This document shows, one piece after another, positions 1,270 through 34,486 of a stretch of DNA of 35,377 nt. Position 1 is the stretch's first letter; each line of letters starts with the position of its first letter. The notes beneath the pieces are model-generated. The model saw only the letters and a list, made by a program, of their open reading frames with translations. It ran no database searches and had not been told where the DNA came from. The position numbers were made by a program, and so were the translations under genes. This DNA is from a candidate division WOR-3 bacterium (GTDB lineage: Bacteria; Hydrothermota; Hydrothermia; LBFQ01; DSFT01), in NCBI GenBank assembly GCA_039803045.1, contig JBDRXT010000001.1:1-35377 (forward strand), in the 5' to 3' direction.

Positions 1270-1870
1270 AAATAATTGCAACTCCAAAACTATCTCCAAG
1301 ATAACTATGATAGAAATAATTCAATTTCAAAAATTTATATTTATAACCTATAGTAAATCCATTGCTGTTTGTTCCAAAAGCTAAATAAAAATTTGAATAC
1401 TCATTTATTTTGTAATTTAAAAAGAATTTGTACTCTAAATCGTAGTTTTCTTGCAAGAAAACTTCAAAGCCTGTTACTGAGCCTTTATACTCACTAAAGG
1501 CACATATATAAGAAAAATTTAAATAGCCATAAGTAGTATAACCGCATATATGAAAATTCGAAAATGTCCTTTCAAAACCAATACCAAAACTTATTTGGTT
1601 TGGATATAAAAACACCGCGTTTAGACCAGCTGAATAAATATTCATTCCAAGGCTTATAGTGTTGATAAATTCATCTTCGACATTTAAGCTATACCAGAAT
1701 ATTCCAATTCTTTGATAACTTATACCAAAACCATATCTATTTAAAATATAAAAATCCCTCCTAATAAAACTTTGAACTTTAAAATCTTCATCGAGAAATT
1801 GGGGAGCAAATAAGCTTGAAATTGGCAATTTATAATGACTTAAAGCAGAAAATTCATAAAAGAAAAACAC
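1259..1870 (-). CDS. hypothetical protein, aromatic/Gly-rich with alternating pattern (beta-barrel-like)
   Basis: 203 aa ORF with GTG start. A promoter-like motif variant (CTATAAAATTTT) lies 2 nt upstream. Y/F/G/N-rich alternating strands. No family recognised. Confidence 0.5.
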   Translation of the reverse strand: MFFFYEFSALSHYKLPISSLFAPQFLDEDFKVQSFIRRDFYILNRYGFGISYQRIGIFWYSLNVEDEFINTISLGMNIYSAGLNAVFLYPNQISFGIGFERTFSNFHICGYTTYGYLNFSYICAFSEYKGSVTGFEVFLQENYDLEYKFFLNYKINEYSNFYLAFGTNSNGFTIGYKYKFLKLNYFYHSYLGDSFGVAIIYER

Positions 1871-1872
1871 TT

Positions 1873-1884
1873 AAAATTTTATAG
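1873..1884 (-). promoter_or_regulatory. promoter-like motif variant CTATAAAATTTT, 2 nt before GTG 1870
   Basis: Read on the minus strand. One mismatch to the consensus. Shares the 29-nt divergent spacer with the plus-strand copy. Confidence 0.4.
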
Positions 1885-1895
1885 TTTAAAATTTT
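1884..1895 (+). promoter_or_regulatory. promoter-like motif GTTTAAAATTTT, 4 nt before ATG 1900 (a second copy, CTTAAAATTTT, at 1870-1880)
   Basis: Contains TAAAAT; 7 nt from the hexamer to the ATG. No SD possible. Confidence 0.55.
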
Positions 1896-1899
1896 CATT

Positions 1900-2205
1900 A
1901 TGTATAAGATAATAGCTATTTATAAACGTCCTGAGGATATAGAAGCTTTTGAAAAATATTATACTGAGGTTCATACCCCTCTTGTAAAGAAAATACCAGG
2001 TCTTAAGGAGTTGAGAATTACAAGAATTAAAGGTTCTCCATTTGGACAAACTGAATATTACTTAATAGCAGAAATGATTTTTGAGACAAAAGAAGATTAT
2101 AAGAAAGCTCTTTCATCAAAAGAGGCAATTGAAGCAGGTCAAGATGCTTTAAAATTTTCAAACAATAAAGTAGATATTATTTTGGGAGAAGAAACTAATT
2201 TATGA
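1900..2205 (+). CDS. EthD family reductase (TIGR02118-like)
   Basis: 101 aa. N-terminus YKRPEDIEAFEKYYTEVHTPLVKKIPGL is typical of the EthD domain. First gene of a 7-gene overlapping operon. Confidence 0.75.
   Translation: MYKIIAIYKRPEDIEAFEKYYTEVHTPLVKKIPGLKELRITRIKGSPFGQTEYYLIAEMIFETKEDYKKALSSKEAIEAGQDALKFSNNKVDIILGEETNL
2147..2158 (+). promoter_or_regulatory. perfect motif CTTTAAAATTTT inside the EthD CDS, 43 nt upstream of the queF ATG (possible internal promoter)
   Basis: Exact 12-mer including the leading C, encoding ALKFS. It could equally be a codon-driven coincidence. Confidence 0.25.
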
Positions 2206-2639
2206 ATTTATGGGAGTTTAAGGAGAAAGAGGATTCTTTTAAGCAAAAAATTAAAAATTCAATCCAGAGTGTTCAAGTAGTTCAAAAAGATATTTTGCTT
2301 GCTATTGATTATGAGTACAAAGGAAGGGATATTTTTGTTGAGATTGTTCAGCCCGAATTTACAAGTTTGTGTCCAATTACTGGTTTTCCAGACTTTTCAA
2401 CAATTAAGATTATTTACATTCCAGATGAAAAAATAGTTGAATTAAAATCGCTAAAGTATTATTTATTGCAATATCGCAATGTTGGGATTTTTTATGAAAG
2501 CCTTGTGAATAAAATATTAGATGATTTAGTTTTTGTTATAAAACCAAAGTATATGGAGGTTATTTGCGAATTTACACCAAGAGGGGGTATAAAAACATCT
2601 GTCAAAGCTGTTTATAAAAGGGGGGTTGATTATGCTTGA
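2202..2639 (+). CDS. queF: NADPH-dependent 7-cyano-7-deazaguanine (preQ0) reductase
   Basis: EFTSLCPITGFPDFSTIKIIYIPDEKIVELKSLKYYL matches the unimodular QueF catalytic Cys/QueF motif region. ATGA overlap with the upstream gene. Confidence 0.9.
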   Translation: MNLWEFKEKEDSFKQKIKNSIQSVQVVQKDILLAIDYEYKGRDIFVEIVQPEFTSLCPITGFPDFSTIKIIYIPDEKIVELKSLKYYLLQYRNVGIFYESLVNKILDDLVFVIKPKYMEVICEFTPRGGIKTSVKAVYKRGVDYA

Positions 2640-3084
2640 AAAACTTTTATCAGAAGAGAGAGTAAAGATAGGAATGAAGGCAAAAACGAAAGATGAAGCA
2701 TTAGAAGAACTTGTAGATCTTCTTAAACTTCCAGATAACAGTAAACAAATTATATTAGACGCTCTAAAGAAGAGGGAGATTATAGGTTCTACTGGTATTG
2801 GAAGGGGGATTGCAATTCCACATACCAGAAGTACTATAGTAAATGATGTATATTTAGCAATTGGAATTAGTAAAGAAGGTGTTGAATTTCAAGCTGTTGA
2901 TAATCAACCTGTACACTTATTTTTCTTACTAATAGCTCCTCCAAATGATCCTGGTACAATGTATTTAATATTTTTAGGCAAAATTGCACAAATAGCCAAA
3001 AGAATAGCAAAAGAAAATGTTGATTATTTGAGTATAGAAAATCCAAAAGATTTAATTAATTTAATATTATCGCTTGAGGCATAA
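2632..3084 (+). CDS. PTS EIIA type-2 domain protein (PtsN-like regulatory IIA)
   Basis: GIGRGIAIPHTR phosphorylation-site His motif. Start set at ATG 2632, 7 nt after AAAGGGGGG; the ORF-track start at 2626 is a TTG. Confidence 0.8.
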   Translation: MLEKLLSEERVKIGMKAKTKDEALEELVDLLKLPDNSKQIILDALKKREIIGSTGIGRGIAIPHTRSTIVNDVYLAIGISKEGVEFQAVDNQPVHLFFLLIAPPNDPGTMYLIFLGKIAQIAKRIAKENVDYLSIENPKDLINLILSLEA

Positions 3085-3086
3085 TT

Positions 3087-3425
3087 ATGAAAAGTTTAAG
3101 TGAGAAATTGTTAATTTTGCAAGATATAGAGATGAAATTATTAGAGATAAAGAGTAAGGAATATATAGAGAAAACTGGTTTTGAAATTGATGAAAGTAAA
3201 ATTTTAGAAATTGAAGAGTATAAGAAAAAACTTGAGAGTGAAATTCCCCCCCAATATTTAAGAAGATTTAAAGCATTATTTAGTAGATATAATAGAGCTG
3301 TTGCTATAGTATATGATAATGCTTGTTCTAATTGCTTTTCGAGATTGCCAACAGGTATTAAAAAGCCAAGCGATAATGAATTAGTTTCTTGTAATGTTTG
3401 TGGTGTTTTCTTATATTTTCCATGA
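3087..3425 (+). CDS. coiled-coil plus C4 zinc-ribbon protein (COG1579-like, short form)
   Basis: 112 aa. C-terminal CSNC...(17 aa)...CNVC zinc-ribbon after a K/E-rich helical region. Confidence 0.6.
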   Translation: MKSLSEKLLILQDIEMKLLEIKSKEYIEKTGFEIDESKILEIEEYKKKLESEIPPQYLRRFKALFSRYNRAVAIVYDNACSNCFSRLPTGIKKPSDNELVSCNVCGVFLYFP

Positions 3426-4609
3426 ATATAAATACTGTTCTTGAAATCATAAAGAAAAATGCTTCTCACTTTTTTCCAGAAGAAGAATTTATAAAGAAAT
3501 ACGAGTTATATTTAAGTGGTAAAAGAGGGCCATTAAGAGTTAAATACGGGGCTGATCCTTCAAGGCCTGACTTACATCTTGGACATTATGTGAGTTTGAA
3601 GAAATTAAGAGATTTGCAAGAATTGGGATTTGAAATAATAGTTATAATAGGTGATTTTACAGCAATTATAGGTGATCCCACAGGAAGATCAAAAACAAGA
3701 CCAAAACTATCAATAGGAGAAGTTATTGAAAATTCAAAAACTTATATTAATCAGTTATCAAAAGTTTTAGATGTTAGTAAGATTAGAGTTGAATACAATT
3801 CAAAATGGTTGTCAAAATTAACACCTTATGATATTATTGAGCTAACTTCAAAATATACAATTTCAAAAATAATTGAAAGAGAAGACTTTAAAAATCGTAT
3901 AAATCAAGGAGAAGCTCTCTTTATTCATGAAATACTATATCCCTTATTTCAAGCTTATGATTCAGTTTATTTAAATGTTGATATTGAATTAGGTGGAGAA
4001 GATCAATTATTTAATTTTACTTTAACTCGAGAAATTCAAAAATCTTATAGTCAAGAGCCTCAAGTTGTTTTAACAGTTCCACTTTTGGTAGGAACAGATG
4101 GTAAATTAAAAATGTCGAAGTCTTACAATAACTATATAGCTTTCAATGATGAACCTTTTGATATGTTTGGTAAGGTTATGTCCATAAGAGATGAGCTTAT
4201 GGAAGATTACTATAAACTAGTTTTATATTACGACAATTTGGAAGAAATAAGAAAATATATAAGGGAAAATCCAAGAGATGCAAAAGAAAGATTAGGTTAT
4301 GAAATTGTAAAAATTTTTTATGGTGAGGAAGTTGCTCTTAAAGTTAAAGATGAATTTAATAGAGTATTTAGAAATAAGGAAATCCCAGAAGATGCATTAG
4401 TTTATGAACTAAAGGAATCTGAAGATATTTGTAATATTTTACTAAAAACTAAGCTTGTAAATTCTAAAAATGATTTTAGAAGACTTTTGTCTCAAAACGC
4501 TATCAAAGTGAATAATCAAGTGATAAGGGAAAATATTATTATAAAAGAAAATGTTTTTGTGAGGGTTGGAAAGCATAGATTTTTAAAAATTGTTAAATAT
4601 GAGAATTAG
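3422..4609 (+). CDS. tyrS: tyrosine--tRNA ligase
   Basis: HLGH (HIGH) and KMSKS motifs, GADPSRPDLHLGH, and a C-terminal S4-like domain. Start at ATG 3422 (MNINTVLE), ATGA overlap with the upstream stop. Confidence 0.92.
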   Translation: MNINTVLEIIKKNASHFFPEEEFIKKYELYLSGKRGPLRVKYGADPSRPDLHLGHYVSLKKLRDLQELGFEIIVIIGDFTAIIGDPTGRSKTRPKLSIGEVIENSKTYINQLSKVLDVSKIRVEYNSKWLSKLTPYDIIELTSKYTISKIIEREDFKNRINQGEALFIHEILYPLFQAYDSVYLNVDIELGGEDQLFNFTLTREIQKSYSQEPQVVLTVPLLVGTDGKLKMSKSYNNYIAFNDEPFDMFGKVMSIRDELMEDYYKLVLYYDNLEEIRKYIRENPRDAKERLGYEIVKIFYGEEVALKVKDEFNRVFRNKEIPEDALVYELKESEDICNILLKTKLVNSKNDFRRLLSQNAIKVNNQVIRENIIIKENVFVRVGKHRFLKIVKYEN

Positions 4610-4904
4610 AGATTTTCAGGAAATTATTAGAAAAACTTATTATGAAAGAGATAAGCAAAAAGGCATCAAGAGTGTTTTTATTTGGACTATTGAAGAAGTT
4701 GGTGAATTAGCAAAATCTTTGAATAGAAAAACTAAAGAGGATATTAAATTAGAAGTTTCGGATGTTATAGCATGGATTTTTAGTATTGCAAATTTGTTAG
4801 ATATTGATATTGAAGAAGCTTTAGAAAGATATTTTAATGGATGTCCAAAATGTAAAAGTATGCCTTGTGTTTGTAAAATGGAGGTGAATTTTGAAGGAAC
4901 TTAA
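4599..4904 (+). CDS. MazG-like nucleotide pyrophosphohydrolase domain protein with Cys-rich tail
   Basis: EEVGELAKS...EVSDVIAWIFSIANLLDIDIEEA is typical of the MazG/YpjD fold. CPKCKSMPCVC tail. Start at ATG 4599; 4590 is a TTG. Confidence 0.75.
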   Translation: MRIRDFQEIIRKTYYERDKQKGIKSVFIWTIEEVGELAKSLNRKTKEDIKLEVSDVIAWIFSIANLLDIDIEEALERYFNGCPKCKSMPCVCKMEVNFEGT

Positions 4905-5409
4905 CTATAGAGTGAATGAAAGTATAAGAGCAAGAGAAGTTCAAGTGATTGGACCTGATGGAAAAAGTTTGGGTGTTATGAGAACAGTAAAAGCGATTGA
5001 ACTTGCTAAGAGTATGGGATTTGATCTTGTTGAAGTTTCTCCTAATAGTAATCCACCTGTTGCAAAAATTATGGATTATGGTAAGTTTATATATGAACAA
5101 AAGAAAAAGCTAAAGGAAATAAAAAAACACCAAAAATCTATGGAAGTAAAAGAAATTCAATTATCACCTGTAATTGATAAGCATGATCTTGAAGTGAAAA
5201 TTAGAAAAGCAAGAGAGTTTTTAGAAGAAGGTCATAAAGTGAGGTTTAGATTAATTTTTAGAGGAAGGCAAATAGTTCATCCAGAAATTGCGAAAGATGT
5301 TTTAGAAAAAGTTATAAACGATTTATCTGAAATTTCAGATGTTGAACAAGCTCCAAAAGATGAAGGAAAATTTATTATCATGCTTTTAAGGCCAAAATCA
5401 AGACGATAG
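4891..5409 (+). CDS. infC: translation initiation factor IF-3
   Basis: INESIRAREVQVIGPDGKSLGVM N-domain and a conserved C-domain. TTG start preceded by GGAGGTG (4880-4886). An in-frame ATT also sits at 4888. Confidence 0.9.
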   Translation: MKELNYRVNESIRAREVQVIGPDGKSLGVMRTVKAIELAKSMGFDLVEVSPNSNPPVAKIMDYGKFIYEQKKKLKEIKKHQKSMEVKEIQLSPVIDKHDLEVKIRKAREFLEEGHKVRFRLIFRGRQIVHPEIAKDVLEKVINDLSEISDVEQAPKDEGKFIIMLLRPKSRR

Positions 5410-5422
5410 TCAGAATAAAAAC

Positions 5423-6526: not shown

Positions 6527-6789
6527 CTTAAACCCTCCTTTTCTTCTATAATTTTTATAAGCTTTTCTATGTTTTTTCTGTCTTGCAAAATTTCAATAAG
6601 TTTATCATAAGTATAATGACTAAAATAAACCGTTATAAAGGGCTTTAAAAATAATAAAAATTGTGATGAGAGAAAAGAAATAGGTTTTGAACTTTCTAAT
6701 AAAAATATTGCTATATCTGACAATCTCATTTTTACAATGCGTTCGGCTAAACTATTTAGTAATACTTCCTTCTCCTTTTCCTCTAACAT
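6523..6789 (-). CDS. hypothetical small protein with a central hydrophobic segment
   Basis: 88 aa ORF. Overlaps the lptC-like 3' end by 38 nt; an alternative ATG at 6729 would remove the overlap. ATGA-coupled to the downstream ORF. Confidence 0.45.
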   Translation of the reverse strand: MLEEKEKEVLLNSLAERIVKMRLSDIAIFLLESSKPISFLSSQFLLFLKPFITVYFSHYTYDKLIEILQDRKNIEKLIKIIEEKEGLR

Positions 6790-8242: not shown

Positions 8243-8254
8243 AAAATTTTAAAG
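8243..8254 (-). promoter_or_regulatory. promoter-like motif CTTTAAAATTTT, 4 nt before the fabH ATG (8238)
   Basis: Perfect 12-mer on the minus strand; 7 nt from TAAAAT to the ATG. Confidence 0.6.
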
Positions 8255-8264: not shown

Positions 8265-8275
8265 CTTTAAAATTT
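8265..8275 (+). promoter_or_regulatory. promoter-like motif CTTTAAAATTT, 7 nt before the ALDH ATG (8283)
   Basis: 11-mer; 9 nt from TAAAAT to the ATG. No SD in the gap. Confidence 0.55.
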
Positions 8276-8282: not shown

Positions 8283-9746
8283 ATGAATGAATATAAAATT
8301 TTTGTAAATGGTCAATTTGTTGATGGTAAAGGCGGAATTGGAGAAGTTATAAATCCTCATGATAATAAAACTATTGCTAAATATCATATTGCTAATTACG
8401 AAGATGTTGATTTTGCAGTAAAATCTGCAAGAGAAGGATTCGAAAAATGGAAAAGCCTTCCAATAAACAAAAGAATTAGGATATTACAAAATCTTTCAAA
8501 ATTACTATTAGAAAATTTAGATAAAATTTCAGAAGTAGAAAGTTTAAATGTGGGTAAGCCAATTACTTCTTCAAAAAGTGAAATCTTGGCAGGAATAAAT
8601 GTCTTGGATTTTTATATTGGAGCAATTAATAAAATTATGGGGGAAACAATACCAACCCTTCCAGGACTTTTTAATTATACAATTAGGGAACCAATTGGTG
8701 TTTGTGCTCTTATTGTTCCTTGGAACTATCCTTTAATGCTAACATTATGGAAGTTATCTCCAGCTCTTGCTTGTGGAAATAGTGTTATTATAAAGCCTGC
8801 AAGTTGGACACCGTTATCTGCTCTTGAACTTGCTAAGCTTTGTAAAGAAGCTGGTATTCCAGATGGTGTTGTAAACGTTATAACTGGACCTGGAAATACA
8901 ATTGGATCTTATTTAGTTCAGCATGAGGGAGTAGATAAAATTTCATTTACAGGTGAAACAAAGACAGGTTCTGAAATTATGAGATTAGCAAGTAAGACTA
9001 TAAAAAGAGTTTCATTAGAACTTGGGGGTAAATCTGCAAACATTGTTTTTGAAGATGCTGACTTAAATGATGCAATTAATGGTTCAATTTGGGCTATATA
9101 CTACAATTCAGGACAATCATGCGAGGCAAGAAGTAGAATTTTTGTTCATAAGAAAATTTATGATAAATTTCTTTCTGAATTCATTGAAAAAACTAAAAAA
9201 ATTAAGATTGGTTATCCCTTAAATAAAGAAACTCAAATGGGGCCACTTGTTTCAAAAACCCATCTGAACAATGTTCATAAACTTGTAGAGGAAGGATTGA
9301 CCCAAGGAGCAAAGTTGATTTATGGAGGTAAGAAAATTGAAGAATCTGATTTAAAGGATGGGAATTACTATTTACCAACAATATTAGAATTACAATCGTC
9401 TGATAATGTTTGCTTTAGAGAGGAAATATTTGGACCAGTTGTAATAATAATGCCATTTCAAGACGAAGAGGAAGCAATTAAGTTAGCAAATAACTCCAAA
9501 TATGGTTTAGCTGGTACAATTTGGACAAGAGATGTAAAAAGAGCAATAAGAGTTACAAATTCAATAATGGCAGGAAGCATAACTGTAAATCATCCCTTAA
9601 CTGCAATTCCGGGACTACCGTTCGGTGGTTATAAGCAATCAGGTTTTGGAAGAGAACTTTCACTTGATGCAATAGATCTTTTCACAGAGAAGAAAAGTGT
9701 GATTTATAAATACTCGGAGGAGGGGGTAAATCCATGGAAATTGTAG
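8283..9746 (+). CDS. NAD(P)+-dependent aldehyde dehydrogenase family protein
   Basis: 487 aa. ELGGKSANIVF catalytic Glu motif, NSGQSCEA catalytic Cys motif, FTGETKTG and PFGGYKQSGFGRE. Confidence 0.9.
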   Translation: MNEYKIFVNGQFVDGKGGIGEVINPHDNKTIAKYHIANYEDVDFAVKSAREGFEKWKSLPINKRIRILQNLSKLLLENLDKISEVESLNVGKPITSSKSEILAGINVLDFYIGAINKIMGETIPTLPGLFNYTIREPIGVCALIVPWNYPLMLTLWKLSPALACGNSVIIKPASWTPLSALELAKLCKEAGIPDGVVNVITGPGNTIGSYLVQHEGVDKISFTGETKTGSEIMRLASKTIKRVSLELGGKSANIVFEDADLNDAINGSIWAIYYNSGQSCEARSRIFVHKKIYDKFLSEFIEKTKKIKIGYPLNKETQMGPLVSKTHLNNVHKLVEEGLTQGAKLIYGGKKIEESDLKDGNYYLPTILELQSSDNVCFREEIFGPVVIIMPFQDEEEAIKLANNSKYGLAGTIWTRDVKRAIRVTNSIMAGSITVNHPLTAIPGLPFGGYKQSGFGRELSLDAIDLFTEKKSVIYKYSEEGVNPWKL

Positions 9747-10975
9747 AAAAGAGATTAATCTTATACTATACAGATAATCCCCCTTCAATTAATATAGATA
9801 ATTATGTTAAAAAGGGTGGTTATAAAGCAGTTAAGAAAGCTTTAGAAATGAAGCCAGAGGAAGTAATTGAAGAGGTCAAAATATCTGGTTTGAGAGGAAG
9901 AGGTGGTGCTGGATTTCCAACTGGTCAAAAGTGGTCATTTGTTCCGAATGATGGTCAAGAGCATTATCTTGTTATAAACGCTGATGAAGGGGAACCTGGA
10001 ACATTTAAAGATAGAGAAATTCTCGAAAAGGCTCCACATTTATTAATAGAGGGGGCTATAATATCGGCTTATGCTATAAGAGCAAACGAAGGATTTATAT
10101 ATTTAAGAGCAGAATATTTAGATGCTTTTAGGATTTTGAAAGAAGCTATCAATGAAGCATACAATAATAATTTACTTGGGAAAAATATTCTCGGAACTAA
10201 TTTCTCTTTTGATTTACATATATATCCGGGAGCAGGTGCCTATATATGTGGTGAAGAGACGGCATTACTAAACTCACTAGAAGGAAGAAGGGGTATTCCA
10301 AGATTAAAACCACCATTTCCTGCAATAAAAGGTTTATATTCAAAACCAACTATTGTAAATAATGTAGAAACAATAGCTAACATTCCAATTATTATAAATA
10401 ATGGAGGTAGTTGGTATAAGAAACTTGGAACAGATAAAAGTCCAGGAACAAAGATATTTACGATTAGTGGAGCAGTTAAGGAACCAAAAGTTTGTGAATT
10501 TGAACTTGGAAAAATTACATTTAGAAAACTTATAGAATATTCAGGGGGATTAAGAGAAGAAAGTAATTTAGTAGGAGTTATTCCTGGTGGTCTTTCTGCA
10601 CCAATCCTTGTAAATGATGAAATAGACATTCCTGTTACATATGAAGATTGTGCTATGAAGAATACAATGCTTGGAAGTGGAGCAGTTATAGTGATAGATG
10701 ATAAGATACCTTTAATTAAAATTATTAGAAGATCTATACAATTTTTCGCTTTTGAAAGCTGTGGATGGTGTACTCCATGTAGAGATGGACTTCCCTGGGC
10801 AACGAGAATTTTAAGAAAGATAGAACTTGGAAAAGGGACAAAGCAAGATTTAGATTTGCTGTATGAAATTACTAACTATATTAAATCAAAAACATTTTGT
10901 CCTCTTGGAGAAGGTGCTCAGTGGATATTGAGAGCATATATTGAAAAGTTTGGCGAGAGACTTCTTAATTTCTAA
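9734..10975 (+). CDS. nuoF: NuoF-like NADH-binding FMN/4Fe-4S flavoprotein (51 kDa subunit family), stand-alone
   Basis: GLRGRGGAGFPTGQKW, NADEGEPGTFKDR, ESCGWCTPCRDG and FCPLGEGA cluster ligands. Strong SD GGAGGAGGGGG (9716-9726). 13-nt overlap with the ALDH gene. Confidence 0.88.
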   Translation: MEIVEKRLILYYTDNPPSINIDNYVKKGGYKAVKKALEMKPEEVIEEVKISGLRGRGGAGFPTGQKWSFVPNDGQEHYLVINADEGEPGTFKDREILEKAPHLLIEGAIISAYAIRANEGFIYLRAEYLDAFRILKEAINEAYNNNLLGKNILGTNFSFDLHIYPGAGAYICGEETALLNSLEGRRGIPRLKPPFPAIKGLYSKPTIVNNVETIANIPIIINNGGSWYKKLGTDKSPGTKIFTISGAVKEPKVCEFELGKITFRKLIEYSGGLREESNLVGVIPGGLSAPILVNDEIDIPVTYEDCAMKNTMLGSGAVIVIDDKIPLIKIIRRSIQFFAFESCGWCTPCRDGLPWATRILRKIELGKGTKQDLDLLYEITNYIKSKTFCPLGEGAQWILRAYIEKFGERLLNF

Positions 10976-11655
10976 TGACAGAGCTTTGGGAGATTCTTTT
11001 TATATGGCTTGGTCTTGCACTTTTGTCAAGTTTAATTTCATTAAGGCTCGGTATATCTGGATAATTGTAGGGAACTTATTTAGCTGGTGCAGAGCTTGAA
11101 AGCAGTACTATAAAAACTTATTGGAAGAGTGCTATAATTAGTGGAGTATAAAACAATCAATTTTAGCAGGGACAGCGTTATCTTCTATCTCTATAGCTAT
11201 TGTTTACGCTTTGCTCATAGAAACTAACTTAAACGAAAAAAAAATTGGAAAATTACTTTTAGCTTCTTCTTTTATAAATGGACTTGGAACACTGCTTATT
11301 ACTTCCACCTTTTACAAGAGCATACAATTTTTATGTAAGAAATCATCACAGTGAACCAGAGGTTTCTAGTTATGCAGGAAGTGTTGCAGTATTGCCTGCA
11401 TATCTTATTGGTGTAATCTTATTTATTTCCTCAAAGCTGGTAGTCTGATTGATATTGCAATCGCGATTAAAAATCTTGGGTTTATAATTTTATTTTTTAT
11501 GATAAGGTTTTCTCTTAAATTGGTCGGTTTATATATTAACGGGTCTTACATTTGATACCATAGTTGCTCTCTATGGTTTAGAACATGGAATAATCGATAA
11601 GAATCAATATTCTATTTTAGAAGCAGTAATTTCTCTTCCCGAAGGAGGGAGATAA
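10975..11655 (+). pseudogene. decayed cation:proton antiporter (CPA2/Kef/NapA-like) gene remnant
   Basis: No ORF over 60 codons in 680 bp. Pieces in shifting frames read MTELWEILFIWLGLALLSSLISLRLGISG*L*GTYLAGAELESSTIKTYWKSAIISGV*, then AGTALSSISIAIVYALLIETNLNEKKIGKLLLASSFINGLGTLLI, then IDIAIAIKNLGFIILFFMIRFSLKLVG, then TIVALYGLEHGIIDKNQYSILEAVISL. The order and wording resemble CPA2 TM segments. TAATG overlaps remain at both ends (nuoF stop, usp start). Confidence 0.6.
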
Positions 11656-12082: not shown

Positions 12083-12093
12083 CTTTAAAATTT
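12083..12093 (+). promoter_or_regulatory. promoter-like motif CTTTAAAATTT, 5 nt before ATG 12099
   Basis: 11-mer; 7 nt from TAAAAT to the ATG. A TTGTAA -35-like hexamer lies 16 nt upstream of TAAAAT. Confidence 0.6.
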
Positions 12094-14495: not shown

Positions 14496-14497
14496 AC

Positions 14498-22329: not shown

Positions 22330-22393
22330 CTCAGTTGGTGAGAGCGCCATCCTCACACGATGGAGGTCCCCCGTTCAAGTCGGGGCACGCCCA
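22320..22393 (+). tRNA. tRNA-Val (anticodon CAC)
   Basis: Hand-folded cloverleaf: acceptor GGGCGTG/CACGCCC, D stem GCTC/GAGC, anticodon stem CCATC/GATGG with loop CTCACAC, T arm CCCCG-TTCAAGT-CGGGG, discriminator A. No encoded CCA. Confidence 0.93.
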
Positions 22394-22395
22394 TT

Positions 22396-23298: not shown

Positions 23299-25268
23299 AG
23301 ATAATTATTGTTGAGAGCCCTTCAAAAGCTAAAACAATTAGTAAGTTCTTGAAAGGTTATTTACTAAAAGCTACGCTTGGGCATATTGTAGACTTACCAG
23401 AAAAAGAAATTGGGGTTGATCTTAATGACTTTAAAATGACATTTTTACCTATTAAAGGTAAATCTAAAATAATACAAGAGTTAAGGGAATTAGTGAAAAA
23501 AGCAGAGATTGTCTATATTTCAACAGATCCTGATAGGGAAGGAGAAGCAATTGCTTATCATATAGTAGATAGAACAAAACCAAAAAATTATAAAAGAATT
23601 GAATTGCACGCTATAATTAAAGAGGAAGTAATAAAAGCTCTCAAAAATCCCAGAGATTTAGATTATAATAGAGTTTATTCCCAATTTTCAAGAAGAATTA
23701 TAGATAGGATTGTTGGATATTTCCTATCTCCATTAGCTAGTAAAACACTTGGGGGTAAACTGTCTGTTGGAAGAGTTCAAAGTCCAGCATTAAGATTAAT
23801 TGTTGAACGTGAAAGAGAAATAAGAAATTTTAAACCTGTAACATATTATCAAATTCAAGTTGTTTATAGAAAGGAAAATATAGAATTTATTGCAAAGTTT
23901 CCCCAAAACATATATGATAAACAAGAAGCAGAAAAAATAGTTGAAGAAATTAAGAAAAATAAGCACATAGTATATTCTATAAACCAGATCGAAGAAAAAG
24001 AGAGTCCTCCAGCTCCATATAGAACTGCTACACTTCAAGAGGATGCAAACAAAATTTTAAAAATTAGTCCAGAAGAAACTATGAAAATTGCTCAATTTCT
24101 ATATGAGAGTGGTTATATTACATATCATAGAACAGATAGTGTGAAAATAAACGAAAATATAATTTTTAAAATAAGAGAGTATATTAAGCAAAATTTTGGG
24201 AAAGACTATGTTGCTAATAAAATTCGCACTTTTAAATCAAAGAAATTTGCTCAAGAAGCACATGAAGCAATTAGACCTTCAATTATAAGTCAAGCTAGAG
24301 AACCGAAAAAACTAAATTTACCCCAAAAAGCTCTTATGATTTATGAACTTATTTGGAATAGAACTATATCAAGTCAAATGGAAAGTTCTATTTGGAAAAA
24401 ATTAAATGTAATAATAAAAGTTGGAAATTATGAACTTTTAGCTCAAGGTAAATATCTTGTTTTTGAAGGTTGGAGAAAACTATATGATTTGCCCGAAATG
24501 GAGATAATTCCTAATTTAAAAGAAAATGAAATTTTAGAATACATTAAAGTTGAATTATTAGAAAAACAAACACAACCTCCAAGTAGATATACTGAAGGTT
24601 CTTTAATAAAAATGCTTGAAAAACTTTCTATTGGAAGACCATCAACTTATGCTCAAATAATCAAAACATTAAAACAGAGAAAGTACGTTAAAGTTAAAAA
24701 TGGAATTCTTTATCCTAGTGAACTTGGTGAAAAGTTAATTGATTGGTTAAGTAGAGAATATAGTTGGGTAATTGATTATGGTTTTACAGCAAAGATGGAA
24801 GAAAAACTTGATTTAGTAGAGGAGGGGAAGTTAGATTGGAAAATTGTTGCTCAAGAGATTTATGAAAAATTAAAAGATGTTGAAATAAAAATTAGGGAAA
24901 ATAAACCAAGTGATAAACAATTAGAACTTGCACAAAAAATTTCTAATGAGCTAAATATTGAATTAGATGAAGAAGTTAAAAGCGATAAAAGAAAATTATC
25001 AAAATGGCTTGATAAGAATAAGCCACCTACCCAAAAGCAAATAGAAATTGCCCAAAAATTAGCAGAAAGCTTAAATTTAAAATTAGATGAAGAAATTTTA
25101 AAAAGTCAAAAAAAATTATCTAAGTGGATTGAAAAACATTCAAAACCTTCTCAAAAACAAATAGAACTTCTCAATAAACTAAAAGAAAAAGGATATGAAA
25201 TCCCACAAGAAGCTTATTTAAGTTTGAAAAAAGCTAAAGAAGTTATAAGGAAAATATTAAAAAAATGA
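23295..25268 (+). CDS. topA: DNA topoisomerase I (type IA)
   Basis: TOPRIM N-terminus (IIVESPSKAKTI, DPDREGEAIA) and active-site GYITYHRTDS. C-terminus has three helical repeats and no Cys zinc fingers. Confidence 0.92.
   Translation: MKIIIVESPSKAKTISKFLKGYLLKATLGHIVDLPEKEIGVDLNDFKMTFLPIKGKSKIIQELRELVKKAEIVYISTDPDREGEAIAYHIVDRTKPKNYKRIELHAIIKEEVIKALKNPRDLDYNRVYSQFSRRIIDRIVGYFLSPLASKTLGGKLSVGRVQSPALRLIVEREREIRNFKPVTYYQIQVVYRKENIEFIAKFPQNIYDKQEAEKIVEEIKKNKHIVYSINQIEEKESPPAPYRTATLQEDANKILKISPEETMKIAQFLYESGYITYHRTDSVKINENIIFKIREYIKQNFGKDYVANKIRTFKSKKFAQEAHEAIRPSIISQAREPKKLNLPQKALMIYELIWNRTISSQMESSIWKKLNVIIKVGNYELLAQGKYLVFEGWRKLYDLPEMEIIPNLKENEILEYIKVELLEKQTQPPSRYTEGSLIKMLEKLSIGRPSTYAQIIKTLKQRKYVKVKNGILYPSELGEKLIDWLSREYSWVIDYGFTAKMEEKLDLVEEGKLDWKIVAQEIYEKLKDVEIKIRENKPSDKQLELAQKISNELNIELDEEVKSDKRKLSKWLDKNKPPTQKQIEIAQKLAESLNLKLDEEILKSQKKLSKWIEKHSKPSQKQIELLNKLKEKGYEIPQEAYLSLKKAKEVIRKILKK
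24903..25265 (+). repeat. three tandem ~40-codon repeats inside topA (topoisomerase C-terminal repeat-like)
   Basis: KPSDKQLELAQKISNELNIELDEEVKSDKRKLSKWLDKN / KPPTQKQIEIAQKLAESLNLKLDEEILKSQKKLSKWIEKHS / KPSQKQIELLNKLKEKGYEIPQEAYLSLKKAKEVI. Repeat starts at 24903, 25020 and 25143. Confidence 0.8.
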
Positions 25269-26317
25269 AAATATTAAGAGGTTCAATTTTAGCTTTTAGA
25301 ATTTACGATGTTGCAAGTGAAATAGACTTAAACAAGATTCAAATATCAAGAACAGAAATTTCGAAAAAATTTGGTAAAAGATTGATTTATCTTAGAAATC
25401 CACCTGCGGTCTTGTTCTTAGAAGAAATTTTACTTAAGAAATTAAATACTCAAGTATTTGCAAAGTTTTATGAGTTTGGAGCAATAAGTTTAATTCTTAA
25501 GATTATATTGGAAGATATTGAAGTTGAAAAATTATACGAGATTTTTAGGGAGGTTTTAGAAAGTGAAGAAATTGATGAAATTTGCAAGTTTTACTTAAAC
25601 AAGTTATTTGAAAAATACAAAATTTACTTTAAAAAACCATCTATATATGGAGATTATGAAGATTACACAATTGTTTATATTCAGGATTTTGAAAGAAAGT
25701 TAAAAAATTACGAAATTCTTGAGGAGATTGATATTGCAAGATTATTACTTGGTGAAAAATATAATCTAAGTGAGCAAACAAAAACAAATCTCCTGAGAAA
25801 TAAGTTTTCATATTCTGATGAAGATTTAGTAGTTTTAAGTTGGGATAGTGGATTTGTTTATGAACCCGATGGGATTATGGATGTTCCAGATTTAATCGAA
25901 TTTGCTAATGCACAGCTTTTGGAGTTAAGATATTATGACAGTTATCTTGATGGTGTTCTTGAAGAAACTTATAGTACAATAGAAAGCTTTAAGAGTTCAG
26001 TATTTGAATATAGAAAATACCAAAGAGTTTTAAAAAGATTACTATTTCTATATAATGAAATAACTGAAGCAAAAGAAATGATTTTGAATAGCTTAAAAAT
26101 TGTAGAAGATTCTTATTTTGCAAAGATTTATTCAAAAATGCTTGAGATTTTAGGAGCTTATAACTGGCAAAGAAGTATTGATAGTAAAGAAAGAACACTA
26201 TTTGAGATATACAACTTCTTAAGCACTCAAGTCTCAAATAGGAGATTAGAATTTCTTGAAATTGTAATAATTTTAGTAATAATTTTTGAAGCTTTGTTAT
26301 TTATAGTTATTAAGTGA
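25265..26317 (+). CDS. RMD1/DUF155-like protein with a C-terminal transmembrane helix
   Basis: 350 aa. Overall layout and the C-terminal RRLEFLEIVIILVIIFEAL helix resemble DUF155 (RMD1/YagE). ATGA overlap with topA. Confidence 0.45.
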   Translation: MKILRGSILAFRIYDVASEIDLNKIQISRTEISKKFGKRLIYLRNPPAVLFLEEILLKKLNTQVFAKFYEFGAISLILKIILEDIEVEKLYEIFREVLESEEIDEICKFYLNKLFEKYKIYFKKPSIYGDYEDYTIVYIQDFERKLKNYEILEEIDIARLLLGEKYNLSEQTKTNLLRNKFSYSDEDLVVLSWDSGFVYEPDGIMDVPDLIEFANAQLLELRYYDSYLDGVLEETYSTIESFKSSVFEYRKYQRVLKRLLFLYNEITEAKEMILNSLKIVEDSYFAKIYSKMLEILGAYNWQRSIDSKERTLFEIYNFLSTQVSNRRLEFLEIVIILVIIFEALLFIVIK

Positions 26318-27372
26318 GTTTTAATATAGCTTTAAAATTATTCAATATGTTATGGTTATTTTCAATTTTGCAAATTTCGGATACATCTGGGAATATCAAA
26401 ATAAAGGATCAGGATGTTGTTATATCCGGGAATGTAAATGGAGATGTTTCAATTGAGAATGGTTCACTTGTTATACTTGAAGAGGGAGAAGTAAAAGGCT
26501 CAGTTTCTGTATTTGGCGATAGTTGTAATATATTTGGTAAGATAAGAGGCAATCTTTCGGCAATCTCCAAAAGCATTGTTATAAAAGGTTCTATTTATGG
26601 TGATGTTTCTCTTATTGGACTTTTGGTGAAAATAAAAGAAAATGGTTACATAAATGGAAATGTTTCAATTGTTGCTGCGAACTTTGAAAATAAAGGAGAA
26701 ATTGAAGGTGAAAAGAGCATTATTTCTATAAATTCTCTTCCTTTTGTTTTACAAAACAACAAAATAAAGTTTGAGAGAAAATTAGACAAAAGAATAAGCA
26801 TATTAATTTTACTGTTATCAATTTTTGTTATAACATTCTTAATTTTTCTCTTTTCAAAAAGAAAGATAGATGAATTTTTTGAGAGATTTCGCCAAAATCC
26901 TCTAAAAACAATAATTACTGGATTAGCTATTCTTTTGATAATTATACCAATATTACCAATTGTCTTATTTCTTGTATTTGGGTTTGTTCTTTTGGCTTTT
27001 ATTCTAGCTCTTATTGTTGGTTCTATTGCTCTAATTATTACGATAATCGGAATTATAATTCTTCCTTTTTATCTTATAGCAATTTTGGTTGTTCTTCTAA
27101 TTATTATTTTTCTTACACTTCTTGCAATTCCTATTTATGTAATTATTGCTCTATTATTAATTGCAATTGGCCTTACTTATGGAATTGTTATAATTGGAAA
27201 ACTAATTGCAAAGAATGATTATTTAGCTTACGCTTTTGGCTTTTTTATCCTTGCAGTCTTAACTACTTTAAGCTATATTTTTCCATATATTAGTCCAATA
27301 TACTTTGTATTTTTAACACTTCTCGTAATAATGGGTCTTGGTTTAATTAAGAATAAAAAATTTAGTCTTTAA
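26314..27372 (+). CDS. bactofilin-like beta-helix domain fused to a polytopic I/L-rich membrane domain
   Basis: N-terminal repeats (ISGNVNGDVSIENGS, VKGSVSVFGDS, IFGKIRGNLSA, IKGSIYGDVSL, INGNVSIVAAN) followed by ~6 very hydrophobic helices. GTG start in a GTGA overlap. Alternative ATG at 26347 has a promoter-like motif upstream. Confidence 0.6.
   Translation: MSFNIALKLFNMLWLFSILQISDTSGNIKIKDQDVVISGNVNGDVSIENGSLVILEEGEVKGSVSVFGDSCNIFGKIRGNLSAISKSIVIKGSIYGDVSLIGLLVKIKENGYINGNVSIVAANFENKGEIEGEKSIISINSLPFVLQNNKIKFERKLDKRISILILLLSIFVITFLIFLFSKRKIDEFFERFRQNPLKTIITGLAILLIIIPILPIVLFLVFGFVLLAFILALIVGSIALIITIIGIIILPFYLIAILVVLLIIIFLTLLAIPIYVIIALLLIAIGLTYGIVIIGKLIAKNDYLAYAFGFFILAVLTTLSYIFPYISPIYFVFLTLLVIMGLGLIKNKKFSL
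26330..26340 (+). promoter_or_regulatory. one-mismatch motif CTTTAAAATTA, 6 nt before the internal ATG 26347
   Basis: Lies inside the 5' end of ORF 26314. Could mark an alternative leaderless start for the bactofilin-membrane gene. Confidence 0.3.
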
Positions 27373-27378
27373 AATTTT
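27367..27378 (+). promoter_or_regulatory. promoter-like motif CTTTAAAATTTT, 6 nt before the sppA ATG (27385)
   Basis: Perfect 12-mer filling the 12-nt intergenic gap and overlapping the upstream stop codon. Confidence 0.55.
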
Positions 27379-30069: not shown

Positions 30070-30080
30070 CTTTAAAATTT
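30070..30080 (+). promoter_or_regulatory. orphan motif copy CTTTAAAATTT right after the thiE stop, with no credible downstream plus-strand gene for 280 nt
   Basis: 11-mer followed by TTTGAACAG. It would drive a transcript antisense to the decayed zinc-ribbon gene. Confidence 0.35.
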
Positions 30081-30097: not shown

Positions 30098-30309
30098 TTA
30101 ATCAAAAATGTCAAATATATCTGTCCACTTCTTTTTCTTCTTCTTGTAATATTCATTATCATAATATCCAAATCTTTTATAATCTTCTTCCCAATCCCTT
30201 TCAACTTCTCTTATTCTTTGAACTATTTTTTCAAACTCACCTCTATCAAGCCATATACCATTACATTAATTTCATTCATGAATACATTACACACTGGGCA
30301 TCTTTTCAT
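30098..30309 (-). pseudogene. disrupted small zinc-ribbon gene (zf-TFIIB/PF13453-like)
   Basis: Minus strand reads MKRCPVCNVFMNEIN..., stopping after 28 codons. A second frame continues CNGIWLDRGEFEKIVQRIREVERDWEEDYKRFGYYDNEYYKKKKKKWTDIFDIFD*. The family pattern CPxC...CxxCxGxWLDxGE is broken near 30264-30270, losing one Cys and shifting the frame. Confidence 0.55.
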
Positions 30310-30315: not shown

Positions 30316-30327
30316 AAAATTTTAAAG
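30316..30327 (-). promoter_or_regulatory. promoter-like motif CTTTAAAATTTT, 6 nt before the ATG (30309) of the zinc-ribbon pseudogene
   Basis: Perfect 12-mer on the minus strand. Confidence 0.5.
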
Positions 30328-30340: not shown

Positions 30341-30351
30341 CTTTAAAATTT
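30341..30351 (+). promoter_or_regulatory. promoter-like motif CTTTAAAATTT, 5 nt before ATG 30357 (LVIVD protein)
   Basis: 11-mer; 7 nt from TAAAAT to the ATG. Confidence 0.6.
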
Positions 30352-30356
30352 AAACT

Positions 30357-32827: not shown

Positions 32828-32828
32828 A

Positions 32829-32912
32829 TGCGGGAGGTGGGACTTGAACCCACACCCTTCTTCAGGACCAGATCCTAAATCTGGCGCGTCTGCCAAGTTC
32901 CGCCACTCCCGC
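32829..32912 (-). tRNA. tRNA-Leu (anticodon TAG)
   Basis: Hand-folded: acceptor GCGGGAG/CTCCCGC, anticodon stem CCAGA/TCTGG with loop TTTAGGA, long variable arm, T arm GTGGG-TTCAAGT-CCCAC, discriminator A. No encoded CCA. Confidence 0.93.
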
Positions 32913-32918
32913 AAGCCT

Positions 32919-32930
32919 AAAATTTTAAAG
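32919..32930 (-). promoter_or_regulatory. promoter-like motif CTTTAAAATTTT, 6 nt before tRNA-Leu nucleotide 1 (32912)
   Basis: Perfect 12-mer on the minus strand, directly after the M32 gene stop. Same spacing as at protein-gene start codons. Confidence 0.6.
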
Positions 32931-32933
32931 CTA

Positions 32934-34439
32934 TTAGTATATGTTTAATAAATTTTCAATTTTGTTTTCAAGGTAATTAATTAAGTACTTGGGATTTGTT
33001 TTCTCACCTGTAACAATTTGGACTAATTCTTGAGGTTTATATAAGGATCCCTTTTGATAAATATTATCTTTTAACCAATTGTAAATCGTTTTAAAATCAC
33101 TTTTTCTAACAAGTTCATAAATATTTCCAAGTTCATTGTTTATTTTATGAAAAAATTGTGCAGCATTTAAATTACCAAGAGTATAAGTTGGAAAATACCC
33201 CATTTCAGAAGACCAGTGAACATCTTGTAAAATACCTTCTTTATCACTTCTTGGTCTAAATCCAAAAAGTTTTTCAAACTTATCATTCCAAGCATCTTTC
33301 AAATCGTCAACCTCTATTTTCTTATTTATCACATCTCTCTCAAGTTCAAATCTCAAAATAATATGTAAGTTATATGTTAGCTCGTCAGATTCAACTCTTA
33401 TATATGAAGGTCTTATTTCATTTATTGCTAAATAAAAATGCTCTAACTTAACATTTTCAAATTGAGGGAAAAACTTTTTCAAGCTATCATAAAATACTTC
33501 CCAGAAAGCTAAGCTTCTACCTATGAAATTTTCCCAAAATCTTGACTGAGATTCATGTATACCTAATGAAACGCTTTCACCAACAGGTGTTCCAAAGTGA
33601 TCTTCGTTAAGTCCCATTTCATAAAATGCATGACCCATTTCGTGAAGTGTTCCAAATATACTTGAACTTATATTATCTTCATAAAATCTTGTAGTAATTC
33701 TGACATCATTTGGCAATATTCTTGTAGCAAAAGGATGTGCTGTTTCATCTAATCTACCTTTATTAAAATCATATCCAATTTTTTCAAGTAAAAACTTACA
33801 AAATTCTTTTTGTTTTTCCTTATCAAAATTTCCCTTCAGTACATAACTCTTAAAATCTTTATTTTCATTTTTTATCCTATTTAACAGTCTAAGTGTTTCA
33901 CTTTTTAGTTGTTGAAAAATATTTGCTATTTCTTGGGCTGTCATTTCTGGTTCATACTTATCAATAAGAGCATCGTAAGGTTCGTTTTTATATCCAAGTA
34001 TTTGAGCCTCTTCTCTTAAAATTTCAACAATTTCTTTTAAATATGGTTTAAATAATTCAAAATTGTCCTTTTCTCTTGCTTCCTTCCAAACATGATATGC
34101 TAAGGTTGAAGTTTTTATATGTCTTATTAATAATTCTTTTGGTATTTTCTTTTGTTCTTTATATTTCTTTTCCCACCAATATAAATTCGCTTTTTGAATT
34201 TCATCTAATTCACCCTGTTTTGCTTTTTCTATTAACTCTCCAACGTAATCTTTTGTCCATTCTTCATATATATACTCTCCAATTATGGCATGAGCCTCAG
34301 CTCTATGTTTGAAACCGTCCTTTGGCATATAAGTTCTTTCATCCCATCCTGATATTGCAATAAGTGATGAGATATAAGTTAATTTTTTTGATATTTTCAC
34401 CAACTCTTTATATGATTCTTGGGGAGTTAATATTGTCAT
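32934..34439 (-). CDS. carboxypeptidase M32 (thermostable carboxypeptidase Taq family)
   Basis: 501 aa. HEMGHAFYE zinc motif, HESQSRFWEN and DELTYNLHIILRFE are family signatures. Confidence 0.92.
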   Translation of the reverse strand: MTILTPQESYKELVKISKKLTYISSLIAISGWDERTYMPKDGFKHRAEAHAIIGEYIYEEWTKDYVGELIEKAKQGELDEIQKANLYWWEKKYKEQKKIPKELLIRHIKTSTLAYHVWKEAREKDNFELFKPYLKEIVEILREEAQILGYKNEPYDALIDKYEPEMTAQEIANIFQQLKSETLRLLNRIKNENKDFKSYVLKGNFDKEKQKEFCKFLLEKIGYDFNKGRLDETAHPFATRILPNDVRITTRFYEDNISSSIFGTLHEMGHAFYEMGLNEDHFGTPVGESVSLGIHESQSRFWENFIGRSLAFWEVFYDSLKKFFPQFENVKLEHFYLAINEIRPSYIRVESDELTYNLHIILRFELERDVINKKIEVDDLKDAWNDKFEKLFGFRPRSDKEGILQDVHWSSEMGYFPTYTLGNLNAAQFFHKINNELGNIYELVRKSDFKTIYNWLKDNIYQKGSLYKPQELVQIVTGEKTNPKYLINYLENKIENLLNIY

Positions 34440-34443
34440 TTTG

Positions 34444-34454
34444 AAATTTTAAAG
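34444..34454 (-). promoter_or_regulatory. promoter-like motif CTTTAAAATTT, 4 nt before the M32 carboxypeptidase ATG (34439)
   Basis: 11-mer on the minus strand; 6 nt from TAAAAT to the ATG. Confidence 0.6.
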
Positions 34455-34460
34455 GATACA

Positions 34461-34486
34461 TTTATAATTTAGAGCTTTAAAATTTT
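34461..34486 (+). promoter_or_regulatory. tandem motifs TTTATAATTT (34461-34470) and CTTTAAAATTTT (34475-34486) upstream of accC
   Basis: The only case in the window with a real leader: 23 nt from the motif end to ATG 34510. Confidence 0.5.

Follow-up and report, generated by a model that had tools for sequence, protein, structure and literature searches.

Why should one short sequence stand a few nucleotides before the start codon of nearly every operon in a bacterial genome segment? The question is raised by a stretch of 35,377 bp (28.6% GC), hereafter the window, from an uncultured bacterium of candidate division WOR-3 living in a hot environment, in which an earlier note on this DNA had recognised the 11-mer CTTTAAAATTT and its variants, hereafter the motif, as a promoter layout that would yield mostly leaderless mRNAs. 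We propose, with considerable confidence, that the motif is the housekeeping -10 promoter of the WOR-3 lineage and that the first cistrons behind it would be leaderless or nearly so. The evidence for this proposal lies in the number and placement of the copies, in their distance from the start codons, in the distribution of Shine-Dalgarno (SD) sites, in the association with RNA genes and in the conservation of the arrangement among relatives.

The window holds 14 exact copies of the 11-mer over both strands, each at the coordinate given in the earlier note, against an expectation of 0.80 ± 0.88 (maximum 3) from 100 dinucleotide-preserving shuffles, none of which reached 14; the note's estimate of fewer than one chance copy is thus borne out. 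The full 12-mer CTTTAAAATTTT, in which the twelfth T is present, occurs as the note described, although nine times and not the eight that it had counted, and copies with one mismatch number 36 where 16 are expected. When the 60 nt upstream of each long open reading frame (ORF) were inspected, the motif was found before all 17 transcription units that start in the window, as an exact 11-mer at 12 and as a close variant with one or two mismatches (the note, too, listed close variants) at the remaining five, and always oriented toward the downstream gene (Table 1). The motif is adjacent to the start in 15 of the 16 protein-coding units. The exception is accC, which was rightly singled out earlier as the only clearly leadered mRNA of the window, its leader (34486-34509, + strand) being without a recognisable SD. 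An intragenic copy and an orphan copy, set apart by the note, are likewise present as described.

This arrangement extends to relatives of the host. The 2026 NCBI taxonomy assigns candidate division WOR-3 (Ca. Hydrothermia) to the phylum Caldifarciminota, class Caldifarciminia, directly under Pseudomonadati and outside the Fibrobacteres-Chlorobi-Bacteroidetes (FCB) group, and the first cultured isolate of the lineage, sy37, dates from 2025 (PMC12285271). The window proteins are bacterial in type (GltX TIGR00464, FabH, SppA), and the 798-aa protein encoded from position 12099 matches four contigs (L001-L004) of metagenome-assembled genomes (MAGs) labelled 'candidate division WOR-3' or 'Candidatus Hydrothermia' at 68-75% identity. 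Further relatives were sampled by scanning metagenome contigs for a divergent pair of copies, AAATTTTAAAG N0-30 CTTTAAAATTT, which returned 120 loci. In about 38 of them both copies lie 3-10 nt before the starts of long ORFs and further copies are present, and these are considered lineage loci. In the other ~80, which are AT-rich and include gut, marine and soil contigs, neither copy lies near any start; they serve as a negative control, and their lack of start association indicates that the sequence alone does not imply the promoter layout. Statistics termed non-seed exclude the motif copies used as search seeds, and the stretches L125-L134 were chosen independently of the motif and carry the gene calls of their source.

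Among the non-seed genes of the related loci, a match with at most one mismatch within 60 nt of the start precedes 41 of 58 divergent first genes, 21 of 49 same-strand first genes and 18 of 129 internal genes, and is found in 3 of 360 intragenic control windows, so that the motif is indeed commoner upstream of first genes than in coding DNA. The layout is also retained at higher GC. In L130 and L131 (53% GC, threonine dehydratase 54% identical) and in L134 (48% GC, HAD 41% identical), yTTTAAACTTT or CTTTAAAATTT stands 3-8 nt before the starts of first genes, with the consensus TTTAAACTTT, and internal genes have a strong GGAGG. These higher-GC loci include at least one gene in which the motif is followed by a 24-nt leader containing an SD, and the tRNA-Leu promoter is exact, with a spacing again of 7 nt. 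Because relatives of 48-53% GC keep the same layout, it is not a by-product of low GC, and to judge from these loci it is much older than the AT-rich Hydrothermia clade. It might be argued that the motif is a chance or compositional artefact of 29% GC DNA with tiny intergenic gaps, since it consists almost entirely of A and T and its one-mismatch copies are common. This explanation, however, is faced with the shuffles, with the difference between divergent first genes and intragenic controls, with the unrelated AT-rich contigs in which the motif pair has no link to starts and with the relatives of higher GC that retain it, and its probability is vanishingly small.

In the window, the gaps between the end of the TAAAAT hexamer and the start codon are 5, 6, 6, 6, 7, 7, 7, 7, 7, 8, 9, 9, 9, 9 and 10 nt (15 starts), which reproduces the range of 5-10 nt and the mode of 7 reported earlier and agrees, as was then pointed out, with the usual distance from a -10 element to the transcription start. 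Measured on 82 non-seed exact copies in related loci, the 11-mer-to-start distance is 4-9 nt with a peak at 4-5 (4 nt 12 times, 5 nt 13 times, 6 nt twice, 7 nt seven times, 8 nt six times and 9 nt three times, with a few at 11-44 nt); the copies of this set scored as having no start mostly precede an ATG missed by the crude ORF caller, or an RNA gene. The start codons concerned are, by comparison with other proteins and annotations, genuine. Residue 1 of GltX, which begins with TTG at 14514, aligns with residue 1 of T. thermophilus GluRS, and residue 1 of FabH with residue 1 of solved FabH structures; the NCBI annotation of the window contig has identical starts where checked (P0001, P0167), and the NCBI and JGI annotations of relatives put starts immediately after the motif.

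We propose the following course of events, inferring from the layout where transcription starts, which sigma factor takes part and that translation is leaderless. The primary sigma holoenzyme would bind the motif as an extended -10 element, and transcription would begin ~6-8 nt after the TAAAAT hexamer. Since the start codon lies 5-10 nt after this hexamer, the 5' end of most primary transcripts would fall on the start codon or 1-4 nt upstream. The mRNAs of motif-adjacent first genes, having no SD, would have to be translated by the leaderless route. The internal genes of operons would rely on a GGAGG-type SD or on translational coupling through stop/start overlap, and a minority of units (accC, tRNAs, riboswitch-controlled genes and some orthologues) would use the same promoter with a real leader.

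The distribution of SD sites is consistent with such a division. Of the 103 motif-adjacent genes one carries an SD 4-mer, compared with 51 of the 188 others (Fisher p = 4e-10). Internal operon genes of the window have no motif; they carry instead a GGAGG-type SD or overlap the preceding stop, as the earlier note had observed at three of the sites in Table 1, to which one on the minus strand is added. An unbiased tally of 122 genes in the window and in L125, L128, L132 and L133, with source gene calls for these four loci, gave 38 motif-adjacent genes with at most one mismatch, seven with two mismatches, six abutting a tRNA, five leadered genes with the motif 11-44 nt upstream, 26 with an SD only and 40 with neither, mostly overlapping or coupled genes. 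The motif-adjacent share of ORFs is thus ~37% (45 of 122), and genes abutting a tRNA add ~5%.

A signal situated a few nucleotides before start codons could also be a ribosome site, and it might be supposed that the motif is a non-SD ribosome-binding site or translation enhancer, an AU-rich site for ribosomal protein S1 comparable with the 'group B' signals of Bacteroidota. The position of the motif, its AU-rich composition and the absence of an SD from motif-adjacent genes would all suit this idea. Untranslated genes, however, are preceded by the motif as well. It lies 7-27 nt upstream of the mature 5' end in 11 stand-alone tRNA genes, that is, in every stand-alone tRNA gene of the sampled loci (Leu-tag in four genomes, Leu-caa, Lys, Asp, Gln in two loci, Pro and Val-gac), and is absent from the operon-embedded tRNAs (Val-cac in three genomes, and Arg). 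At tRNA-Leu(tag) both motif and spacing are kept in the window, L132, L133 and L134 (7, 7, 8 and 7 nt). Two fluoride riboswitches lie downstream of the motif, directly in L114 and after ~40 nt in L001; an Rfam scan of 19 lineage loci gave no additional RNA genes. The orthologues of the gene at 12099 are particularly instructive, as all keep 'atgCTTTAAAATTT': in the window and in L001 the motif is followed by 5 nt and ATG, and in L002, L003 and L004 by a leader of 21-26 nt, with AGGAGG or GGGGG at SD distance, and then ATG. As the motif precedes tRNAs and riboswitches and stays in place when orthologues gain an SD leader, we take it to be a transcription signal, a promoter element of the -10 type and, on this comparative evidence, not a ribosome site. 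The scarcity of the motif before internal genes (18 of 129), which have GGAGG, points the same way, and group B motifs precede all genes, internal ones included (PMC6028130). A role as ribosome-binding site is accordingly most improbable.

The anatomy of the motif is that of a single extended -10-type element with the consensus V-C-T-T-[TAAAAT]-T-T-T-(C/A)-A and no -35 partner. An exact 11-nt match occurs in roughly two thirds of the promoters, and each copy contains TAAAAT, TATAAT or TAAACT. Outside the 11-mer, an alignment of 174 start-associated sites has 'not T' before the conserved C (T in 3%), T at position 12 (75%), A or C at position 13, and A (69%) or a purine (86%) at position 14, 5 nt after the hexamer. 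The conserved C and T-tract, proposed earlier as an extended recognition element, survive an unbiased alignment anchored on TANNNT only, with C-15 at 62%, T-14 at 82%, T-13 at 80%, T-6 at 88%, T-5 at 74% and T-4 at 61%, and TAAAAT is found at 48 of the 76 TANNNT anchors before first genes. Positions -15, -14 and -13 are accordingly C (62-94%), T and T, and the TG of the extended -10 (TGn) is absent.

The lack of a consistent -35 hexamer, also noted earlier, is confirmed in three ways: upstream of the 174 sites the information content is below ~0.15 bit at every position from -49 to -1; TTG at a spacer of 15-19 nt occurs in 13% of sites and 7-11% of controls; and a scan for classical bipartite -35/-10 promoters gave 108 sites against 112 expected. 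Divergent copies can share one base pair (1884) or stand 10-20 nt apart, which leaves no intergenic room for a -35. A scan for intrinsic terminators remained at chance level (6 against 7.5 expected). A near-invariance over 11-13 nt is more typical of operators or repeats than of bacterial -10 boxes, and together with one orphan and one intragenic copy it might suggest a site for a global DNA-binding protein (nucleoid protein or repressor) or a short dispersed repeat. This view is difficult to reconcile with an orientation strictly with the downstream gene, with a TANNNT hexamer that is perfect and canonically spaced from starts, and with the presence of the motif at essentially every unit, whatever its function and tRNAs included. 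Moreover, in the higher-GC relatives the motif degenerates to TTTAAACTTT but retains TA...T, and no other promoter-like signal is enriched. We regard an operator or repeat as very improbable.

Several observations nevertheless weigh against a -10 promoter with leaderless first cistrons. A search for sigma-70 region-2 signatures in the window and the sampled related DNA found no sigma gene. Two exact window copies (2147 and 30070) have no obvious downstream gene. TTG makes up 19% of motif-adjacent starts, some of which are perhaps ORF-calling artefacts, and TTG initiates leaderless mRNAs poorly in E. coli and mycobacteria. In the relatives, the distance from hexamer to start has two peaks, at 6-7 and 9-10 nt, separated by a minimum at 8 nt, and is more variable than in Deinococcus; with such a spread many transcripts would have 2-4 nt before the AUG, unless the start distance of the polymerase varies. 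Finally, the conserved purine at position 14 could be the true transcription start, with leaders of 1-6 nt as a result. The last two points are the basis of an alternative, in which the motif is likewise a -10 promoter but transcription starts ~5 nt after the hexamer, at the conserved A, and the short leaders are translated by an SD-independent, 5'-end-proximal mechanism other than classical 70S leaderless initiation. The spacing of 7-8 nt between the 11-mer and tRNA-Leu, fixed in four genomes, is also in its favour. Transcription starts only 5 nt after a -10 hexamer are, however, rare in studied polymerases. The most frequent gap, 6-7 nt, is also the canonical -10-to-start distance, and Deinococcus and Mycobacterium start on the A of AUG (PMC12340547, PMC6028130). 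In practice this alternative, which we consider unlikely, differs from leaderless expression only in the length of the leader, zero as opposed to a few nucleotides.

A second route to a leaderless 5' end is suggested by the genes that follow tRNAs. Same-strand protein genes after a tRNA usually start -1 to +5 nt from the discriminator base (seven independent junction types; Table 1), with no SD, no encoded CCA and no motif in between. The Val-cac junction is conserved in three species, and of the four genomes with Leu-tag and HAD, three retain the junction (window, L132 and L133, the latter with CTG for the ATG of the window). In L133 (9990-10003) the HAD gene with CTG at the tRNA-abutting site has its NCBI start at an ATT three codons downstream, and it may have a non-canonical start or be a decaying gene. 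Counter-examples with their own promoter between tRNA and gene are tRNA-Arg/ACS in L125 and HAD in L134. In the window, the stop codon (22327-22329) of the E1-alpha-like ORF (21205-22329) falls within the acceptor stem of tRNA-Val(cac), an overlap of 10 nt; this tRNA was missed by the default Rfam gathering scan of the whole window and scored 66.9 bits in a focused scan.

This gene order suggests that tRNA 3' processing would set free mRNAs that lack a leader and bear a 5'-monophosphate, comparable to tRNA punctuation in mitochondria, and that the genes directly behind a co-transcribed tRNA probably owe their 5' end to it. Leaderless mRNAs of this origin would imply, independently of the motif, that the lineage is able to translate leaderless mRNAs. 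Mitochondrial punctuation, reportedly described by Ojala, Montoya and Attardi in 1981, resembles the present case in that the start follows 0-5 nt after the tRNA, there is no leader, SD or encoded CCA, and the upstream ORF may end inside the tRNA. It differs in that the WOR-3 bacterium is free-living, has a normal gene content and promoters at most units, and shows the arrangement in only ~5% of its genes; punctuation in WOR-3 is visible in the gene layout, processing and translation being predicted. A literature search for bacterial tRNA-punctuated leaderless mRNAs gave only mitochondrial or unrelated papers, which is weak evidence of novelty. It can tentatively be hypothesised, at slightly less than an even chance in our judgement, that this phylum follows, on a normal free-living genome, a 'mitochondrion-like' expression grammar, in which one near-invariant, -35-less promoter box serves almost all units, first cistrons would be leaderless through initiation at the AUG or, in ~5%, through tRNA excision by RNase Z/RNase P, SD sites are confined to internal genes, and some tRNAs, such as tRNA-Leu, would be made almost without a 5' leader.

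Table 1. Motif copies, SD sites and tRNA junctions. The motif copies upstream of the 17 units, the intragenic and orphan copies and the SD sites are all in the window; distances are counted from the 11-mer to the start codon, and offsets at tRNA junctions from the discriminator base.
Locus	Position	Strand	Feature	Context
Window	1874-1884	-	Variant CTATAAAATTT	3 nt before GTG 1870; first base pair common with divergent copy 1884-1894
Window	1884-1894	+	Variant GTTTAAAATTT	5 nt before ATG 1900, first gene of 1900-5409 operon
Window	2147-2157	+	Exact copy	Inside ORF 1900-2205, first of 1900-5409 operon; 44 nt before ATG 2202
Window	8244-8254	-	Exact motif	5 nt before ATG 8238, fabH operon
Window	8265-8275	+	Exact motif	7 nt before ATG 8283, aldehyde dehydrogenase operon
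Window	12083-12093	+	Exact motif	5 nt before ATG 12099, 798-aa secreted protein
Window	14497-14507	+	Variant CCTTAAAATTT	6 nt before TTG 14514, gltX
Window	16746-16756	-	Exact motif	8 nt before ATG 16737
Window	18711-18721	-	Exact motif	4 nt before ATG 18706, operon 18706-16743
Window	19824-19834	-	Variant GTATAAAATTT	7 nt before TTG 19816
Window	19853-19863	+	Exact motif	4 nt before ATG 19868, amidohydrolase
Window	21189-21199	+	Variant CTTTATAATTT	5 nt before ATG 21205, E1-alpha-like, first of operon 21205-27372
Window	27367-27377	+	Exact motif	7 nt before ATG 27385, sppA-thiE; overlaps 3' end of preceding ORF
Window	30070-30080	+	Orphan exact copy	Directly after thiE stop; no + strand gene downstream
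Window	30317-30327	-	Exact motif	7 nt before ATG 30309, small Zn-ribbon gene, frameshifted
Window	30341-30351	+	Exact motif	5 nt before ATG 30357
Window	32920-32930	-	Exact motif	7 nt before mature 5' end (32912) of tRNA-Leu(tag)
Window	34444-34454	-	Exact motif	4 nt before ATG 34439, 501-aa protein
Window	34475-34485	+	Exact motif	24 nt before ATG 34510 (accC); 26 nt from hexamer end
Window	4880-4884	+	GGAGG SD	Internal gene 4891-5409
Window	6533-6538	-	GGAGGG SD	Internal gene 6526-5423
Window	9714-9724	+	GGAGGAGGGGG SD	Internal gene 9734-10975
Window	11644-11649	+	GGAGGG SD	Gene 11655-12074
Window	22320-22393	+	tRNA-Val(cac)	Operon-embedded; threonine dehydratase ATG 22396 at +2
Window	32829-32912	-	tRNA-Leu(tag)	HAD hydrolase ATG 32827 at +1; NCBI start identical
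L132			Leu-tag / HAD hydrolase	4-5 nt spacer
L125-127			Val-cac / threonine dehydratase	+2
L128/129			Val-cac / threonine dehydratase	0 (TTG)
L128			Pro / helicase	-1/0
L128	317-390, 9927-10003		Junction coordinates
L003	21947-22031		Leu-caa / GlmS (MCGIFGY)	+4
L109	4265-4340		Lys / lipoprotein-like ORF	+1
L119	4937-5011		Asp / malate/lactate dehydrogenase	+1
L133	18800-18875		Val-gac / MGDG synthase	+2

Some copies of the motif, and two damaged genes, call for separate comment. The copy at 2147-2157 may be an internal promoter giving a leadered transcript, or a chance copy. The orphan copy at 30070-30080 points antisense into the decayed Zn-ribbon gene, through which it would, from its orientation, drive antisense transcription; as the motif is missing from the matching site behind thiE in a relative (L082), the orphan copy finds no explanation by synteny. 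The Zn-ribbon gene itself (30100-30309, - strand), behind the motif at 30327, is frameshifted, with MKRCPVCNVFMNEINVMVYGLIEVSLKK* in frame 0 and ...GIWLDRGEFEKIVQRIREVERDWEEDYKRF... in another frame, and is either a pseudogene or the product of a sequencing error. An exact motif inside a coding region (ttcCTTTAAAATTTgatggaattggtga...) is common to L024 (~1371, -), L031 (~2013, -) and L098 (~2038, +), and reflects either the conservation of an internal promoter or that of the coding sequence alone. The segment 10975-11655 (+) comprises 680 bp without a long ORF, in which a good N-terminus, MTELWEILFIWLGLALLSSLISLRLGIS..., is then broken into several frames. This N-terminus resembles that of the intact membrane transporter behind a fluoride riboswitch in L001 (8420-9547) and L114, and the segment probably represents either an assembly error or the remains of a fluoride-responsive antiporter gene; the window contains no riboswitch.

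The layout can be compared with several known systems. Promoters independent of a -35 include the TGnTATAAT of E. coli, the TATAAT-GGGA of Thermus aquaticus and the promoters of Campylobacter and Helicobacter, which have no -35, and they normally give leadered mRNAs. As in extended -10 promoters, one enlarged -10 region of the WOR-3 motif holds the recognition information and no -35 is needed, but the upstream extension is C-T-T and not T-G-n, and the downstream extension is T-T-T-(C/A)-A where Thermus aquaticus has GGGA. An extended -10 promoter of the TGn type was rejected, there being no TG at -15/-14. The sigma-AB promoter of Bacteroidota combines TAnnTTTG at -7 with TTTG at -33, and shares with the WOR-3 motif a TA followed by a T-rich run near the transcription start, as well as AT-rich upstream regions. 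Unlike TAnnTTTG, the WOR-3 motif TAAAATTTT is off by one in register and has no G, and TTTG at ~-33 is found in 5% of motif sites and 3-8% of controls; a promoter of the -7/-33 type was rejected, as neither the register nor the -33 element agrees. Bacteroidota translate without SD (PMC3155529), whereas the WOR-3 lineage keeps a strong GGAGG on internal genes.

Closer counterparts are found among bacteria with leaderless transcripts. The GeneMarkS-2 'group C' comprises 1028 of 4769 bacteria, mostly Actinobacteria and Deinococcus-Thermus (Lomsadze et al. 2018, PMC6028130), in which a Pribnow box lies ~10 nt from first-gene starts and 25-50% of operons are predicted to be leaderless (PMC6028130). 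The Pribnow box before first genes, the SD on internal genes and the common distance range of promoter and ribosome-binding site are features that WOR-3 shares with this group; unlike the 25-50% of operons there, 15 of the 16 protein-coding units of the window are motif-adjacent. An archaeal TATA/BRE (B recognition element) promoter, as in group D, was rejected on the distance of 5-10 nt, the bacterial-type proteins and the WOR-3 relatives. A -10 box 6-8 nt from the start codon is accompanied by mapped leaderless transcripts in Deinococcus, Thermus and Mycobacterium (PMC12340547, PMC4007540, PMC6028130). In Deinococcus-Thermus the '-10-motif adjacent to ORFs' concerns ~30% of ORFs, called the highest share among phyla (Zhong et al. 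2025, PMC12340547), and 60% of D. deserti mRNAs are leaderless (de Groot et al. 2014, PMC4007540). WOR-3 resembles this phylum in being diderm and often thermophilic, in the large share of ORFs with the layout, and in having a TANNNT box 6-7 nt before first-gene starts, no SD there and GGAG-type ribosome-binding sites elsewhere. The two differ in the motif, which is a degenerate TANNNT, mostly TACACT, in Deinococcus-Thermus and a 13-14-nt consensus with C-15 and a T-tract from -6 to -4 in WOR-3; in the share of ORFs, ~30% against ~37% motif-adjacent and ~5% tRNA-abutting; and in spacing, which is broader in WOR-3. The layout of Deinococcus-Thermus rests on transcription starts and reporters, that of WOR-3 on sequence.

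Literature searches gave nothing that links WOR-3 with leaderless expression, and nothing on Caldifarcimen. The earlier suggestion that a leaderless, single-motif layout would be unusual in an AT-rich diderm is therefore to be qualified: it has precedent in group C and in the diderm Deinococcus-Thermus, and what is unusual is the phylum in which it occurs, how little the motif varies and the high fraction of genes concerned. From its sequence features, the layout is the known leaderless architecture with a '-10 box next to ORF', in a new phylum and in an unusually uniform form.

For the WOR-3 / Hydrothermia lineage, these results provide a concrete promoter consensus and, for its MAGs, a rule for gene starts, the start codon lying 3-9 nt after CTTTAAAATTT; gene finders built on the assumption of an SD will place such starts wrongly. 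Promoters so nearly identical would leave little tuning of promoter strength. Leaderless-dominant expression would no longer be confined to Actinobacteria and Deinococcus-Thermus but would include a thermophilic phylum of diderms that branches deeply, in a fraction of genes at or above the highest reported, a result relevant to the question of whether leaderless initiation is an ancestral trait or arose repeatedly. If the proposed processing is true, the tRNA-abutting starts would be a bacterial counterpart of mitochondrial tRNA punctuation.

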